Made by a program: the position numbers and the translations under genes
In this document: one piece after another, positions 1 to 40,465 of the stretch
How positions within the stretch are numbered: position 1 is the stretch's first letter
Layout: each line of letters begins with the position of its first letter
IMG/VR virus record: IMGVR_UViG_2778261162_000003
Origin: a virus
Lineage: Duplodnaviria > Heunggongvirae > Uroviricota > Caudoviricetes
Direction: 5' to 3' (one strand)
Length of the DNA: 54,013 nt
The notes under the pieces: generated by a model
What the model saw: the letters and a program-made list of their open reading frames with translations, nothing else
Told to the model about the DNA's origin: nothing
The model's database searches: none

Positions 1-650
<650 letters not shown>

Positions 651-2943: not shown

Positions 2944-3234
2944 TTAGCGATTCAGGCCGTTACCGCGTCCGTCGAGAAAAACTTCCACGAGCAAATCACG
3001 GGTATAAGTGCGCTCGATGCCGCGATGCAGATAAAGCCGTCCGCGTAAATTAGCTGATGCAGTCCAGGTACCATCTTTGTGTTTGACCAGCATTCCTGGC
3101 ATGACCGCGCCGCGATTAACGGTCTGCGTTCCGTAATGTTGATGAACCATAAAAACTCCTGCCCGTAAGCTGGGCTGCTGAACATATAGAGACTTCTGCG
3201 CGTATTCAGGCGGTGGATGGCCGCCGGTTGTCAT
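2944..3234 (-). CDS. Hypothetical protein in the kil/cIII position of the pL operon
   Basis: 96-aa ORF between the pL region and gam; no recognised similarity; competing overlapping ORF in another frame. Confidence 0.3.
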
Positions 3235-3424
3235 AACTAAGCCGCCTCGTTGAAGCGACTAAGGTATGAAATGTTGAGTTGATTTCAGCTGGTCACACCG
3301 ACGTTCACGCGTCCGTTTCACCCCTCGCACTCCCCGAAGCCTGCTGAAATTCAAACTGCGGATCTAAGCGGTCATCGCAACGGTGAATCAGGTGGTTGCC
3401 GTATCGTTGTGTTGTTGCGATGAA

Positions 3425-3505
3425 CTTATTTAAAACTATAGTTGTTTTACCGTCAACAACAAAAGTTGTTTTATTGGTTGTTTTAGATATAACTGGTTGT
3501 ATTTA
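3425..3505 (-). promoter_or_regulatory. Putative pL promoter with OL operator repeats
   Basis: Minus-strand -35 TTGACG (3451-3456) and -10 TTAAAT (3428-3433) with 17-bp spacer; AACAAC/GTTGTT half-sites including palindrome AACAACAAAAGTTGTT (3455-3470); same architecture as the pR region. Confidence 0.45.
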
Positions 3506-3745
3506 GGATGGATTTATTTTGTGACTTGAATCGCATAGCGATAACTGAAGCGAGGTTATGGTGGTTTTTTTAACGGTGTGTGTGATGAGGGGAGGGCAAA
3601 AGAAAACCCGGCACGGTGACCGGGATTCTTACGCCGTTAGGTAAAGATATTATTGCGGTGGCTTAATATTACTACCTAGAGCAAAGATAGGAATTAGTTC
3701 TTTACTGAATGAGCACAATGCCCAGTTGATAATTTTTAATTGGTA

Positions 3746-4435
3746 CTACCCATGCTTCCTATATGTCTGCGGCATGCTCCCAATAACCTTACCGAAGATG
3801 AACACCCGGTTCATCTCGTCTTTCTCGATCGGGTCCCACGGTGAGTAGCTTTTGTTATCAGAGATGACCAGCAGCTTATCCTTCATCATTTGCAGGCGCT
3901 TTACATGGGCTGTGTCGTCGTACAGAAACGCATAGATACCATCACCGTCGAAAGATTTAACTGTGATATCAACGAACAGCAGATCACCTGGTTCGATCGT
4001 TCCTGACATGCTGTCACCACGCACGTTAATGATGCGGATATTTTCCGCCTTCCTACCATCGAACATATGACGAGCATCGTCAAACGAGTACTCAACCGAG
4101 CGTAGAACTTCTACAAACTCACGGTTGATGACTCCCGGCCCAGCACTGACTTCTATATCAAGAACGTCAATCTTGAAGTATTTGGAATGGCTGACAGTTG
4201 ATTGTATTGGTTGCACTGTACTGTCTGACATATTTCCAACGCCAGAAGATAACCATTCTGCGCGCACACCCAAAGCGTTCGCGATCTCCACGATTTTAGT
4301 TGTTTGATTAGCTTTCCCTGTTTCGATTTTCTGAATAGCAGCTTGGCTAACCCCGACCAAATCCCCAAGCGCCTTTTGTGTAAGGCCTCGCGCTAATCTG
4401 GCTTCTTTAAGTCTTTCTGAGAGTGTTGTTTTCAT
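3746..4435 (-). CDS. cI: Prophage repressor CI (N-terminal HTH plus C-terminal LexA/S24-type self-cleavage domain)
   Basis: HTH LTQKALGDLVGVSQAAIQKIETGK; C-terminal domain with catalytic Ser (RGDSMSGT) and Lys (HVKRL); start taken at MKTTLSERL since the upstream ATG lies inside the operator region; no Shine-Dalgarno, consistent with a leaderless pRM transcript. Confidence 0.85.
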   Translation of the reverse strand: MKTTLSERLKEARLARGLTQKALGDLVGVSQAAIQKIETGKANQTTKIVEIANALGVRAEWLSSGVGNMSDSTVQPIQSTVSHSKYFKIDVLDIEVSAGPGVINREFVEVLRSVEYSFDDARHMFDGRKAENIRIINVRGDSMSGTIEPGDLLFVDITVKSFDGDGIYAFLYDDTAHVKRLQMMKDKLLVISDNKSYSPWDPIEKDEMNRVFIFGKVIGSMPQTYRKHG

Positions 4436-4539
4436 AGTCCAAATGTACAACCAAGGTTTTATTTCATCAAACGAAAATGGTTGTTGACTAAAAACAACCA
4501 TAGTTTTAATCTTGATTCAAATTAACCACGGAGGTTGTT
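4436..4539. promoter_or_regulatory. Divergent pRM/pR control region with OR operators
   Basis: Plus-strand pR: -35 TTGACT (4484-4489), 17-bp spacer, -10 TAATCT (4507-4512), RBS GGAGG before cro ATG; palindrome ATGGTTGTT-N7-AACAACCAT (4477-4501) overlapping the -35. Confidence 0.55.
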
Positions 4540-4770
4540 ATGAACCCAGCTATCAAAACAGCGATCAATATCGTTGGTTCACAAAAGAAACTGGGCGCTG
4601 CTTGCGAAGTTTCACAGCAGGCCGTCTATAAGTGGCTTCACAACAAAGCAAAGGTATCCCCTGAACATGTCGGCAGCATTGTTACGGCTACTGGTGGAGT
4701 AGTGAAGGCATACCAGATTCGCCCGGATCTTCCGAAGTTGTTTCCACACACCGAAAAGAACGCAGCTTAA
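4540..4770 (+). CDS. cro: Cro-like HTH regulator
   Basis: 76 aa, divergent from cI across an operator region; HTH QKKLGAACEVSQQAVYKW. Confidence 0.7.
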   Translation: MNPAIKTAINIVGSQKKLGAACEVSQQAVYKWLHNKAKVSPEHVGSIVTATGGVVKAYQIRPDLPKLFPHTEKNAA

Positions 4771-4839
4771 ATTTCCATTTCACGCTCTTTAACAATAAGC
4801 AATCAACTTAACAGTCAATTCAAACTAAAGGAGTCAATT

Positions 4840-5379
4840 ATGCAACCACTTACATACCAACAGACTAGCGGATTTAGCCCGACTGCGGTGATAAATCGTT
4901 CTCAAACAAAACAGGTGCCAGGCCACGAAAAAATCCGTGATGCCGTCCGCGCCTGGTCGGCTGAAGATAATCAGGATGTCGTTGCCGCACTCATTGTGAA
5001 TGAGTATCGAGCACAGGGCGGCGGCACTATCGATTTTTCTGATGATGTCAGTCGTGCACGCCAGAAGCTGTTCCGCTTTCTCGATAACAAATTCGATTCT
5101 GAAAAATACCGAAATAACGTGCGTGAACTGACTCCAGCAATTCTGGCAGTACTACCGCTGAAATATCGCGGCCACCTGGTTGAGCAGGATAGCTTCATGG
5201 CTCGGCTGGCTGAAATGGAAAAGGAACTCAGTGAGGCAAAACAGGCTGTCATTCTCAACGCACCACGCCACCAGAAACTGAAGGAAATTAGTGAAGGTAT
5301 TGTGTCGATGTTTCGTGTGGACCCAGATCTGGCTGGTCCATTGATGGCGATGGTTACTACCATGCTGGGGGCGATATGA
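4840..5379 (+). CDS. CII-like regulatory protein (possibly phage 186 CII/CP76 family)
   Basis: 179-aa ORF in the cII position between cro and O; family assignment from recollection only. Confidence 0.4.
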   Translation: MQPLTYQQTSGFSPTAVINRSQTKQVPGHEKIRDAVRAWSAEDNQDVVAALIVNEYRAQGGGTIDFSDDVSRARQKLFRFLDNKFDSEKYRNNVRELTPAILAVLPLKYRGHLVEQDSFMARLAEMEKELSEAKQAVILNAPRHQKLKEISEGIVSMFRVDPDLAGPLMAMVTTMLGAI

Positions 5380-7392: not shown

Positions 7393-7459
7393 TGAAACAG
7401 GTGAGTTGATTTCAAACTGTAGTACAATTCTCTCCAGTTTGAACAGGAAAGAATATGCT

Positions 7460-7792
7460 ATGAACCCTTATATTTATCTTGGTGGTGCAATACTTGCAGA
7501 GGTCATTGGTACAACCTTAATGAAGTTTTCAGAAGGTTTTACACGGTTATGGCCATCTGTTGGTACAATTATTTGTTATTGTGCATCATTCTGGTTATTA
7601 GCTCAGACGCTGGCTTATATTCCTACAGGGATTGCTTATGCTATCTGGTCAGGAGTCGGTATTGTCCTGATTAGCTTACTGTCATGGGGATTTTTCGGCC
7701 AACGGCTGGACCTGCCAGCCATTATAGGCATGATGTTGATTTGTGCCGGTGTGTTGGTTATTAATTTATTGTCACGAAGCACACCACATTAA
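7460..7792 (+). CDS. emrE: Small multidrug resistance efflux transporter EmrE
   Basis: 110 aa from MNPYIYLGGAILAEVIGTTLMKFSEGF..., matches E. coli EmrE; conserved Glu14. Confidence 0.95.
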   Translation: MNPYIYLGGAILAEVIGTTLMKFSEGFTRLWPSVGTIICYCASFWLLAQTLAYIPTGIAYAIWSGVGIVLISLLSWGFFGQRLDLPAIIGMMLICAGVLVINLLSRSTPH

Positions 7793-8048
7793 AAATAATT
7801 TGTTTCTAAACGACTAAAATATGGAGGCTCTTATATTTATATGAGCCTCGTTTTATGCTTTTTGTTAATGTCTTTATTTTTTTATGTATTCTTTTGTGCT
7901 TTCAAGATTATGGCGTAAGAAAATTGCAATACGATTATTGTTGTATATTCAAGATAATGTGACCTTAATTGTCTTTTTAAATAAAAATTAAACAAAAATT
8001 ATATCTCACCACTAAGGTTTATAGAAGCATACGTTAGCAGGTGTCACC

Positions 8049-9575
8049 ATGAAAAAAGCCATAGCATATATGCGATTTTCATCACCAGGTCAGATGTCTG
8101 GCGACTCATTAAACCGACAGAGAAGACTTATTGCTGAATGGTTAAAGGTAAATAGTGATTATTATCTTGATACCATAACATATGAAGATTTAGGATTAAG
8201 TGCATTCAAAGGAAAGCATGCACAATCAGGAGCTTTTTCGGAATTTTTAGATGCTATAGAGCATGGTTATATATTGCCAGGAACTACATTGTTAGTTGAA
8301 AGTCTGGACAGACTTTCAAGAGAAAAAGTCGGTGAAGCGATTGAGCGTCTGAAATTGATTTTGAATCACGGTATTGATGTTATAACTCTTTGCGATAATA
8401 CAGTCTATAATATTGACTCTTTGAATGATCCATATTCATTAATAAAAGCCATACTTATAGCACAAAGGGCAAATGAAGAAAGCGAGATAAAGTCAAGTCG
8501 GGTTAAATTATCATGGAAGAAAAAACGGCAGGATGCACTGGAGTCAGGCACGATTATGACGGCGTCTTGTCCGAGATGGCTCTCCTTAGATGACAAAAGA
8601 ACGGCTTTTGTTCCAGACCCCGACAGGGTGAAAACTATTGAGCTAATTTTTAAACTCAGGATGGAAAGGCGCTCATTGAATGCAATAGCCAAGTATTTAA
8701 ATGATCATGCTGTAAAGAATTTCTCAGGAAAAGAAAGTGCATGGGGACCTTCTGTAATTGAAAAATTATTAGCGAATAAAGCTCTGATAGGTATATGCGT
8801 ACCTTCATATCGTGCAAGAGGTAAAGGAATAAGTGAAATCGCTGGCTATTATCCCAGAGTCATATCAGATGATTTGTTTTACGCTGTGCAGGAAATTCGG
8901 TTGGCACCTTTTGGTATTAGCAATAGTAGCAAAAACCCTATGTTGATAAATCTACTTCGAACAGTTATGAAGTGCGAGGCTTGTGGTAATACCATGATTG
9001 TTCATGCGGTATCTGGAAGTTTGCATGGCTATTATGTTTGTCCGATGAGAAGACTGCATCGATGTGACAGGCCATCAATAAAGAGAGATTTGGTTGATTA
9101 TAATATCATTAATGAGTTGCTTTTTAATTGTAGTAAAATCCAACCAGTTGAAAACAAGAAAGATGCTAATGAAACTTTAGAGTTGAAAATTATTGAGCTC
9201 CAGATGAAAATTAATAATTTAATTGCTGCATTATCTGTTGCGCCTGAAGTTACCGCTATAGCAGAAAAAATCAGAGTATTAGATAAGGAATTACGAAGGG
9301 CTTCTGTATCATTAAAAACTTTGAAGAGTAAAGCGGTGAGCTCACTTGGTGATTTTCATGCTATTGACTTAACCAGTAAAAATGGGCGAGAGCTATGTCG
9401 TACACTTGCCTATAAAACATTCGAAAAAATCATAATCAATACAGATAATAAAACCTGTGATATCTATTTTATGAATGGCATTGTTTTTAAACACTATCCT
9501 TTAATGAAAACAATATCCGCCCAGCAGGCGATAAGTACTCTCAAATATATGGTTGATGGTGAGGTTTATTTTTGA
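8049..9575 (+). CDS. ybcK: Large serine recombinase (YbcK-like)
   Basis: 508 aa; N-terminal resolvase-like catalytic domain (AYMRFSSPGQ, active-site Ser); Cys-rich recombinase zinc-ribbon; AT-rich codon usage. Confidence 0.85.
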   Translation: MKKAIAYMRFSSPGQMSGDSLNRQRRLIAEWLKVNSDYYLDTITYEDLGLSAFKGKHAQSGAFSEFLDAIEHGYILPGTTLLVESLDRLSREKVGEAIERLKLILNHGIDVITLCDNTVYNIDSLNDPYSLIKAILIAQRANEESEIKSSRVKLSWKKKRQDALESGTIMTASCPRWLSLDDKRTAFVPDPDRVKTIELIFKLRMERRSLNAIAKYLNDHAVKNFSGKESAWGPSVIEKLLANKALIGICVPSYRARGKGISEIAGYYPRVISDDLFYAVQEIRLAPFGISNSSKNPMLINLLRTVMKCEACGNTMIVHAVSGSLHGYYVCPMRRLHRCDRPSIKRDLVDYNIINELLFNCSKIQPVENKKDANETLELKIIELQMKINNLIAALSVAPEVTAIAEKIRVLDKELRRASVSLKTLKSKAVSSLGDFHAIDLTSKNGRELCRTLAYKTFEKIIINTDNKTCDIYFMNGIVFKHYPLMKTISAQQAISTLKYMVDGEVYF

Positions 9576-39890: not shown

Positions 39891-40465
39891 TGGCATTCAG
39901 AATGAGTGAACAACCACGGACCATAAAAATTTATAATCTGCTGGCCGGAACTAATGAATTTATTGGTGAAGGTGACGCATATATTCCGCCTCATACAGGT
40001 CTGCCAGCAAACAGTACCGATATTGCACCACCAGATATTCCTGCTGGCTTTGTGGCTGTTTTCAACAGTGATAAGGCATCGTGGCATCTTGTTGAAGACC
40101 ATCGGGGTAAAACGGTTTATGACGTAGCGTCAGGGGACGCGTTATTTATTTCTGAACTCGGTCCGTTACCGGAAAATGTTACCTGGTTATCGCCGGAAGG
40201 GGAGTTTCAGAAGTGGAACGGCACAGCCTGGGTGAAAGATGCAGAAGCAGAAAAACTGTTCCGGATCCGAGAGGCGGAAGAAACAAAAAACAGCCTGATG
40301 CAGGTAGCCAGTGAGCATATTGCGCCACTTCAGGATGCTGTAGATCTGGAAATCGCAACGGAGGAAGAAACCTCATTGCTGGAAGCCTGGAAAAAGTATC
40401 GGGTGTTGCTGAACCGTGTTGATACGTCAACTGCACAGGATATTGAATGGCCAGCACTGCCGTAG
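39890..40465 (+). CDS. tfa: Tail fiber assembly protein Tfa
   Basis: 191 aa; start overlaps the stf stop (TAATG); matches lambda Tfa family. Confidence 0.9.

Follow-up and report, generated by a model that had tools for sequence, protein, structure and literature searches.

Organization of the immunity region

Positions 3425-4539 of the window (the whole 54,013-nt stretch of viral DNA that was analysed) comprise the immunity region of a lambda-like prophage that occupies the DLP12/argU site. The region has 99.6% identity with phages PhiR34_1 and Turner and was found in about 1,050 of 5,426 complete E. coli genomes. Every match in a scan of viral contigs was 100% identical to the window, so that scan was of no use for comparison. 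More divergent relatives were E. coli KCJ3K291 (L004), with 83% identity at the nucleotide level, and Klebsiella phage ST101-KPC2phi6.1, whose repressor has 74% identity over its N-terminal domain and an unchanged recognition helix, GVSQAAIQKIETG. A literature search with the RefSeq protein accession and the PhiR phage names returned nothing relevant. This analysis directly established which gene families and sites are present (Table 1), how the sites are spaced and that they are conserved.

Table 1. Genes, promoters and operators of the immunity region (positions in the window).
Feature	Position	Strand	Description
cI repressor gene	3746..4435	-	229 aa; Pfam domains; PGAP same start
cro-like gene	4540..4770	+	76 aa, YdaS family; Pfam YdaS_toxin (PF15943), E 4e-17; phrog_35 transcriptional repressor
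cII-like gene	4840..5379	+	179 aa, YdaT family; Pfam YdaT_toxin (PF06254), E 1.4e-28; phrog_163 CII-like activator
Intrinsic terminator downstream of cI	3597..3624	-	CCCGG-loop-CCGGG, then TTTTCTTTT
pR (predicted)	4484..4512	+	TTGACT (4484-4489), 17-nt spacer AAAAACAACCATAGTTT, TAATCT (4507-4512); predicted start ~4519
pL (predicted)	3428..3456	-	TTGACG (3456..3451), 17-nt spacer GTAAAACAACTATAGTT, TTAAAT (3433..3428); predicted start ~3421
pRM (predicted)	4442..4470	-	TTGATG (4470..4465), 17 nt, TACATT (4447..4442), 6 nt, ATG 4435; predicted start, A of ATG
OR1 (predicted)	4494..4507	+	ACAACCATAGTTTT; in pR spacer, 1-nt overlap with -10 hexamer; centre 65.5 bp from cI ATG
OR2 (predicted)	4471..4484	+	ACGAAAATGGTTGT; abuts pRM -35, 1-nt overlap with pR -35; centre 42.5 bp from ATG
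OR3 (predicted)	4447..4460	+	ACAACCAAGGTTTT; in pRM spacer, 1-nt overlap with pRM -10; centre 18.5 bp from ATG
OL1 (predicted)	3432..3445	-	ACAACTATAGTTTT; in pL spacer
OL2 (predicted)	3456..3469	.	ACAACTTTTGTTGT; 24 bp centre to centre from OL1; 1-nt overlap with pL -35
Two extra ACAAC half-sites	3477-3481, 3496-3500	-	upstream of OL2

The product of cI is, as judged from its domains, a LexA/CI-type repressor with a 434-like helix-turn-helix and an S24 self-cleaving domain. The N-terminal domain matched Pfam HTH_3 (E 5e-13, residues 9-62) and the C-terminal domain Peptidase_S24 (E 1e-18, residues 95-218). The S24 motifs are Ala98-Gly99, Ser142 (in GDSM) and Lys179 (in VKRL), and these align with the AG, GNSM and FKKL of lambda. 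Among proteins of solved structure, the best relative of the DNA-binding domain was the 434 repressor (E 4.5e-9, about 39% identity), which aligns gap-free over its residues 2-65. Read from this alignment, Gln17 and Gln28 of 434 are retained, Gln29 is replaced by Ala and Gln33 by Lys.

The two genes downstream of pR belong to the YdaS and YdaT families, with Pfam matches that both exceed the curated cut-offs. The cro-like gene has a GGAGG ribosome-binding site (4530-4534). YdaS is the equivalent of Cro in prophage CP-933P (PMC8630535), and YdaT is a functional equivalent of CII (PMC9986795). The first-pass annotation, made without database searches, had described a non-lambda immunity module whose repressor and cro-like proteins are not those of lambda. 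The gene families bear this out: cI is 23% identical to lambda cI, its DNA-binding domain is nearest that of 434, and the Cro has no meaningful similarity to lambda Cro.

The same annotation had paired this module with "lambda-identical" recombination and structural genes. Identity was too strong a claim. The red genes share about 98% identity with their counterparts in phage 434, a lambda relative; lambda itself is absent among the matches listed. The structural genes match lambda at 96.1% identity over 88% of 23 kb.

Promoters and the probable leaderless cI transcript

The promoters pR and pL both have the -35/17 bp/-10 layout, at the positions described previously. A consensus promoter scan with a threshold of 9/12 called none of pR, pL and pRM, each of which was one match short by our own count. 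Relatives have TATTCT as the -10 hexamer of pR, with equal spacing. The pL promoter was aligned with that of L004; with an 18-nt spacer, its second hexamer would be TAAATA.

The cI mRNA is likely to be leaderless, because the start codon at 4435 is supported (see below), a TANATT hexamer lies 6 nt upstream and there is no Shine-Dalgarno sequence. In the window and in five relatives alike, the 25 nt that precede the ATG contain none of AGGA, GGAG, GAGG and AAGG, in agreement with the first-pass annotation. TACATT, 6 nt and the cI ATG follow one another here as TAGATT, 6 nt (TAACGT) and ATG do in lambda, so that an AUG without a Shine-Dalgarno sequence is preceded by a -10 hexamer placed for a start at the A of that AUG. 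TANATT is retained in six lineages. It lies 6 nt upstream of ATG in five of them, among which are L004, the Klebsiella phage, PA28 and HK639, and the distance in 4A7 is 7 nt; the nucleotides between TANATT and ATG are unrelated among lineages. The leaderless cI that had been proposed by analogy with lambda is, as a prediction from sequence, well supported by this lambda pRM-type geometry and its conservation, and it has an experimental precedent in a related module (PMC8630535).

It is unlikely that the switch works as described here but with a pRM transcript that carries a leader of a few nucleotides, or that is made from another -10 hexamer, such that cI is not strictly leaderless. TACATT matches the consensus at only 4 of 6 positions and was missed by the promoter scan, and the choice of start site may shift by 1-2 nt. 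Against this, the hexamer keeps its distance of 6-7 nt from the ATG in the six lineages and lambda while the intervening bases are unrelated, and a short leader would not aid translation, since none of those lineages has a Shine-Dalgarno sequence. In addition, the repressor gene paaR2 of CP-933P, whose partners are YdaS and YdaT, is expressed leaderless, as determined by 5' RACE and N-terminal sequencing (PMC8630535).

Operators

The predicted operators are 14-bp sites, ACAAC-N4-GTTKT; OR has three of them and OL two that are clear. A motif search of the 54-kb window, suggested by the first-pass annotation, found ACAACNNNNGTTKT at four places (five strand matches, versus 0.29 expected), all in the control regions. 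ACAAC or GTTGT occurred eight times in about 157 bp of control DNA, versus about 0.3 expected (window-wide count, 107).

The operator architecture recognised in the first-pass annotation is real, but its unit needed correction. ACAAC(C/T)ATAGTT lies between the hexamers of both pR and pL, as had been noted, is absent elsewhere in the window, and is the core of OR1 and OL1. The palindrome at 3455-3470 (AACAAC-AAAA-GTTGTT) is present and is OL2, the only fully symmetric site. The sequence at 4477-4501 is also a perfect 9+7+9 palindrome, ATGGTTGTT-GACTAAA-AACAACCAT, but its arms read GTTGTT...AACAAC, opposite to the order given, and we rejected it as an operator: the right half of OR2 simply adjoins the left half of OR1 here.

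The sites at OR are spaced 24 and 23 bp apart. Measured from the cI ATG, their centres are at 18.5, 42.5 and 65.5 bp, compared to 19, 42 and 66 bp for the annotated lambda operators. The left half of OR2, ACGAA, is weaker and off-pattern. There is a clear site at the equivalent 42.5-bp position in PA28 and HK639. L004 and the Klebsiella phage have OR2 unchanged but differ in the 10 bp on its left side.

The outer ACAAC/GTTKT bases are retained at all five sites in L004 and ST101-KPC2phi6.1, neither of which differs in the recognition helix, and the central four bases and the flanks vary. OR1 is identical in L004 and is ACAACTAAGGTTTT in the Klebsiella phage; the counterparts of OR3 are ACAACCGTGGTTTT and ACAACCATGGTTTT, respectively. 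Both relatives have ACAACTATGGTTTT in place of OL1 and ACAACTATTGTTGT in place of OL2, with unchanged spacing. The three lineages of the same specificity are not very far apart, so part of this conservation could reflect shared ancestry rather than selection.

The additional pair of ACAAC half-sites upstream of OL2 could represent a degenerate OL3. Of these, the distal half-site also occurs in L004 and the Klebsiella phage, but we recognised no second half for it and no convincing OL3. A fourth candidate on the OR side, ACCACGGAGGTTGT at 4525-4538, has one mismatch and lies over the cro ribosome-binding site, where lambda has the same GGAGGTTGT; it is probably incidental.

There is little chance that longer palindromes, either the 25-bp ATGGTTGTT-N7-AACAACCAT or a 17-bp AAAAC-N7-GTTTT, are the functional units in place of the 14-bp sites. 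The perfection of the palindrome at 4477-4501 and the AAAACAAC(C/T)ATAGTTTT common to pR and pL speak for them. However, one arm of the 25-bp palindrome is lost in the Klebsiella relative (CCAT to CTAA) where the 14-bp sites stay, and the equivalent arms are one base farther apart at pL. The 17-bp form was rejected: it suits no sites other than OR1 and OL1, and OR3 and OL2 do not conform to it. The 14-bp form suits five sites and has a position-for-position match in PA28 and HK639.

The start of cI

The start of cI at 4435 was supported over the upstream ATG at 4501. RefSeq PGAP annotation places the start at 4435, L004 has a TAG within the 22-codon extension (4501-4435), and the Klebsiella relative has no ATG at the position equivalent to 4501. 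There is hardly any chance that translation of cI begins at the ATG at 4501 on a leadered transcript and yields a 251-aa protein, even though this frame contains no stop codon between 4501 and 4435 in the window and the records of both PhiR34_1 and Turner annotate this longer gene (756 nt): 22 open codons would arise by chance about one time in three, by our estimate, the alignment with the 434 repressor begins at residue 5 of the short form, and the ATG at 4501 falls within OR1 and the pR spacer, so no pRM-type promoter can precede it. These results suggest that the cI start in the two deposited phage genomes is apparently 22 codons too far upstream.

Comparison with other lambdoid immunity regions

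Comparison with the immunity regions of other lambdoid phages had been proposed in the first-pass annotation; that with lambda, 434, HK639, PA28 and CP-933P indicated a specificity that differs from those of lambda and imm434. The region resembles lambda in its divergent cI and cro with three operators between them, in the nearly equal distances from operators to ATG, in the -10 hexamer 6 nt from an ATG without a Shine-Dalgarno sequence, and in the S24 self-cleaving C-terminal domain. It differs from lambda in that the operators are of 14 bp rather than 17 bp and of another sequence, the Cro is unrelated, there is no rexAB, a YdaT-family protein stands in place of CII, and no N gene was found.

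The predicted specificity differs from that of imm434, based on differences in the recognition helix, the operators and the leader. The operators of 434 are ACAA-N6-TTGT, and its repressor reads the outer and not the central bases. The sites described here are likewise 14 bp long, and in them too the outer bases are conserved while the centre varies; OL2 (ACAACTTTTGTTGT) matches the 434 pattern exactly. However, position 5 is always C (ACAAC-N4-GTTKT versus ACAAG/T... in 434), three of the sites have AAAAC as the second half, and 434 cI has a 30-nt leader with a GAGG Shine-Dalgarno sequence. The DNA-binding domain is homologous to that of 434, but neither the Gln28/Gln29/Gln33 contacts nor the operators are identical. 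By megablast, the region had no match to lambda imm434, though that phage was in the collection searched.

HK639 and PA28 are similar in layout of operators and pRM. Both have three 14-bp operators and TANATT 6 nt from an ATG without a Shine-Dalgarno sequence; the cI of HK639 is also 229 aa (44% identity), and, as in the region described here, HK639 lacks N and its cII gene is long, of YdaT length. They differ in the half-site, which is ATAAC rather than ACAAC, and in the recognition helix, which is SQPAIQK rather than SQAAIQK. Their sites, ATAAC-N4-GTTAT, are centred 18.5, 42.5 and 67.5 bp from the ATG. The presence of these sites at matching positions in the SQPAIQK relatives indicates that repressor and operator change together. 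Together with ATACGC/AQPTIWR, the pairs ACAAC/SQAAIQK and ATAAC/SQPAIQK form a natural series for change of specificity in 434-type repressors.

The PaaR2/YdaS/YdaT system of CP-933P (E. coli O157:H7) is similar in having a YdaS-type Cro, a YdaT-type CII, a divergent repressor gene and a lambda-like logic of pRM, pR and pL; it differs in that PaaR2 lacks an S24 domain and its gene is followed by a toxin-antitoxin pair, in that its operators are 18-bp repeats of another sequence, and in its YdaT site, TTGATT-N6-AATCAA, which is not clearly present here (PMC8630535, PMC9986795). The best match to that site near pR (4512-4529) has two mismatches, none is positioned as in CP-933P, and we rejected such a YdaT site here. 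Across the window there were nine matches, versus 3.3 expected, and 1 of 100 shuffles reached nine.

Interpretation of the switch

Based on these results, we believe that the region is a lambdoid lysogeny switch of the standard kind whose immunity specificity is not that of lambda (probability roughly 0.8). Repressor and cro genes are divergent, three sites lie over pR and pRM, and matching OL sites lie at pL; OR1-3 and OL1-2 were located 23-24 bp apart and are kept in relatives, and an OL3 could not be made out. The switch is of a known, common type. Since it combines a lambda-like layout with a phage-434-type repressor and 14-bp operators, the region is real and was correctly read but is ordinary.

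We infer the following about how the repressor binds and cooperates, how pRM is activated, where its transcript starts and how the prophage is induced. Dimers of cI would bind ACAAC-N4-GTTKT and read the outer five base pairs, not the central four, like the 434 repressor. OR2, with its one poor half-site, would probably need cooperative help from OR1. Repressor on OR1 and OR2 would shut pR and cro, and from OR2, 42.5 bp before the cI start codon, it would also stimulate the weak pRM. Transcription from pRM would begin at the A of the cI ATG or immediately beside it, giving a leaderless mRNA that ends at the terminator downstream of cI. At high repressor concentration OR3 would be occupied and pRM turned off, and OL1 and OL2 would cover pL likewise. 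The order of binding to these sites is presumably reversed for the YdaS-type Cro, and the YdaT-type protein would substitute for CII. Induction of the prophage would follow self-cleavage of the repressor, prompted by SOS-activated RecA.

There is little new biology in a textbook-type switch that had been correctly read. The analysis defines the likely operator and the cI start for an immunity type carried by about one-fifth of complete E. coli genomes.

Early operons and the pL leader

No N gene and no HK022-type put RNA were found in the early operons. A profile of six put sequences found HK639, which has a putL-like RNA, at E 3e-26 and nothing in the window (best E 8). Searches of the pL leader for a put-like RNA with blastn and nhmmer were negative, as was Rfam, and the leader folded no better than shuffled sequence (z = +0.4), and we rejected it as a candidate. 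It is quite unlikely that the pL leader, or a boxA alone, is an undescribed means of making early transcription processive.

Two further observations concern these operons. The pR operon contains a lone rrn-type boxA (GCTCTTTAACAA, 4784-4795) without boxB. Homology with heteroimmune phages starts at 3421/3420, and the pL leader, of about 150 nt, starts exactly at this end of the immunity module and enters a stretch homologous to the region just past the phi80 tL1A terminator and to an annotated terminator of HK639.

Genes of the immunity region

The immunity of this lambda-like prophage is not that of lambda, because its cI has 23% identity to that of lambda and comparison of its Cro with lambda Cro gave no meaningful similarity. 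The first-pass annotation had made the same claim, but its description of the recombination and structural genes as lambda-identical was too strong: they are near-identical, since the red genes match those of the lambda relative phage 434 at ~98% identity and the structural genes match lambda at 96.1% over 88% of 23 kb. cI residues Ala98-Gly99, Ser142 and Lys179 align with the cleavage site and catalytic residues of lambda cI. The next two genes belong to the families YdaS and YdaT, which in the E. coli O157:H7 prophage CP-933P are equivalent to Cro and CII (PMC8630535, PMC9986795).

Features of the immunity region and other elements, in window positions; operators are predicted
Feature	Position	Strand	Remarks
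IstB, C-terminal part	12-530	+	IS21-family ATPase, left end of window, Pfam E 4e-64
pL leader	3151-3425	minus	~270 nt
OL1	3432-3445		ACAAC-N4-GTTKT
OL2	3456-3469		ACAAC-N4-GTTKT
Intrinsic terminator	3597-3624		after cI; hairpin and T-run
cI	3746-4435	minus	229 aa; HTH_3 residues 9-62, Peptidase_S24 residues 95-218
OR3	4447-4460		ACAAC-N4-GTTKT
pRM -35 hexamer	4470..4465		TTGATG
OR2	4471-4484		ACGAAAATGGTTGT; left half a poor match
OR1	4494-4507		ACAAC-N4-GTTKT
YdaT-site-like match	4512-4529	+	TTGATTCAAATTAACCAC
cro-like gene	4540-4770		divergent from cI; YdaS family
boxA	4784-4795	+	GCTCTTTAACAA
cII-like gene	4840-5379		next after cro-like gene; YdaT family
emrE, ybcK	7406-9575		after ren, nin region
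IS009 RNA family match	40233-40431	+	full-length Rfam match, 226.7 bits (gathering score 117)

Predicted operators

The operator pattern was confined to the two control regions. Among solved relatives of the cI N-terminal domain, the phage 434 repressor comes closest (E 4.5e-9, gap-free alignment to residues 2-65); its sites are 14 bp, ACAA-N6-TTGT. A scan of the 54 kb for ACAAC-N4-GTTKT found four places, compared to 0.29 expected, all in these regions; between the two right-hand ones there is a fifth site, one half of which matches poorly. The OR sites are 24 and 23 bp apart, centre to centre, and the OL sites 24 bp. The predicted OR centres are 18.5, 42.5 and 65.5 bp from the cI ATG and the cro start is 105 bp away, compared to annotated centres at 19, 42 and 66 bp and a cro start at 101 bp in lambda. 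We looked for an OL3 beside OL1 and OL2 and in relatives; all that turned up were two conserved ACAAC half-sites, at 3477-3481 and 3496-3500.

The promoter-like layouts of pR and pL and their common ACAAC(C/T)ATAGTT core were there as first described, and a simple promoter scan gave no call for pR, pL or pRM (the predicted cI promoter). OR1 falls within the pR spacer and OL1 within the pL spacer, and OR2 and OL2 each share one base with a -35 hexamer. OR2 abuts the pRM -35 hexamer, the position where lambda repressor activates pRM.

Both palindromes of the first-pass annotation are present, but they are not of the same kind: 3455-3470 is AACAAC-N4-GTTGTT, whereas 4477-4501 is GTTGTT-N7-AACAAC with longer arms. 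The latter, 25 bp long, is the right half of OR2 beside the left half of OR1. As an operator unit it was rejected: it is broken in Klebsiella phage ST101-KPC2phi6.1, where the 14-bp sites persist. The earlier interpretation is thus supported, with the operator unit corrected to the predicted 14-bp sites.

Comparison with relatives

All five predicted operators were kept at the same positions in two relatives with the same recognition helix as the window cI, GVSQAAIQKIETG. These same-specificity relatives, which are not very distant from the window, are E. coli KCJ3K291 (83% nucleotide identity here; the cI C-terminal domain and neighbouring genes differ) and the Klebsiella phage (74% identity in the N-terminal domain; rexAB adjoins cI). 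The outer ACAAC and GTTKT bases were invariant across the three, and the central four varied (OR3 CAAG/CGTG/CATG; OR1 CATA/TAAG; OL1 TATA/TATG; OL2 TTTT/TATT), as did the DNA between operators.

Among more distant relatives, recognition helix and predicted site change together. In the Stx1-phage PA28 and in phage HK639 the helix is SQPAIQK, and the sites, of the form ATAAC-N4-GTTAT, have their centres 18.5, 42.5 and 67.5 bp from the cI ATG; phage 4A7 has AQPTIWR and ATACGC-type sites. We found no paper on this particular immunity type. The switch belongs to a well-known kind.

The specificity unit comprises the cI N-terminal domain, OR and cro; OL forms a short block of its own. This follows from two sharp junctions with heteroimmune phages (4A7, Perceval group; PhiR30_1). 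The pL leader is in common from 3421/3420, which coincides with the predicted pL transcription start, and cI is in common only from ~4198 leftwards, the linker (~residue 79) and C-terminal domain; the C-terminal domain is therefore common to different immunity types. The gap between cI and pL (3470-3745) resembles the rex position of lambda in being a slot for variable cargo: it holds only the terminator in the window, rexA/rexB in the Klebsiella phage, a YafO toxin gene and another gene in KCJ3K291, and DUF3800 or BamE-like genes in other relatives.

The start of cI

Comparison with relatives indicates that the cI start annotated in both deposited phage genomes is probably 22 codons too far upstream. 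PGAP places the start at 4435, as did the first-pass annotation, and the phage depositors at 4501, an ATG within OR1. The 22-codon extension carries a TAG in KCJ3K291, and the Klebsiella phage lacks the upstream ATG. In the deposited records PV340559.1 and PP925837.1 (L001 4512-5267, L002 3512-4267), cI is annotated as 251 aa, from the ATG inside OR1.

The cI transcript from the predicted pRM is probably leaderless (we put this at about 0.7-0.8). The coding strand upstream of 4435 reads TACATT-TGGACT-ATG, compared to TAGATT-TAACGT-ATG in lambda. A TANATT hexamer occurs in five relatives despite unrelated nucleotides between it and the ATG: TAGATT in KCJ3K291 and PA28, TAAATT in the Klebsiella phage and TATATT in HK639, all 6 nt from the ATG, and TAAATT in 4A7, 7 nt away. 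None of the five has a Shine-Dalgarno sequence upstream of cI. In contrast, phage 434 cI has a 30-nt leader with GAGG. 5' RACE and N-terminal sequencing have shown the CP-933P repressor gene, which has the same Cro/CII partners, to be expressed leaderless (PMC8630535).

Early transcription

We found no N gene between pL and kil/gam, no HK022-type put RNA in the pL leader (profile search), and a boxA without a boxB-like hairpin after it. No other stretch of the 54 kb matches this rrn-type boxA pattern exactly. It occupies the position of lambda nutR, after cro and ahead of the cII-like gene; the pL leader has no counterpart. Leader positions 3203-3271 are 84-95% identical to phi80 DNA directly after N, starting where the annotated tL1A terminator ends, and also match HK225 and an annotated HK639 terminator. 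Shuffled sequence folded as well as the first 150 nt of leader RNA. A match, with two mismatches, to the CP-933P YdaT site TTGATT-N6-AATCAA is present at the predicted pR start; it carries little weight alone, since the window has nine such matches (3.3 expected).

Identity and spread of the prophage

This appears to be an intact relative of DLP12, a prophage that is defective in K-12. In a genome that matches query 3400-4560 at 100% identity, the prophage adjoins tRNA-Arg and intD, downstream of fimZ, which is the DLP12 attachment site, and has emrE and ybcK in its nin region. The placement of emrE (SMR efflux pump) and ybcK (serine recombinase) is the same in DLP12.

The immunity region is widespread and already sequenced. 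Among 5,426 complete E. coli genomes, 1,048 carry positions 3400-4560 at a coverage of at least 80%, most of them with an identity of 99% or higher; Escherichia phages PhiR34_1 and Turner match 3235-4840 at 99.6% identity; and a viral-contig scan gave hundreds of identical copies. The region has the annotations cI, Cro and cII in deposited phage records.

The left arm of the prophage is apparently interrupted by an IS element, because an otherwise identical prophage continues with orf61-type, TraR and int genes at the position where the window's left end has the IstB part. The IS009 RNA match lies close to where the structural genes end with the tail fibre.
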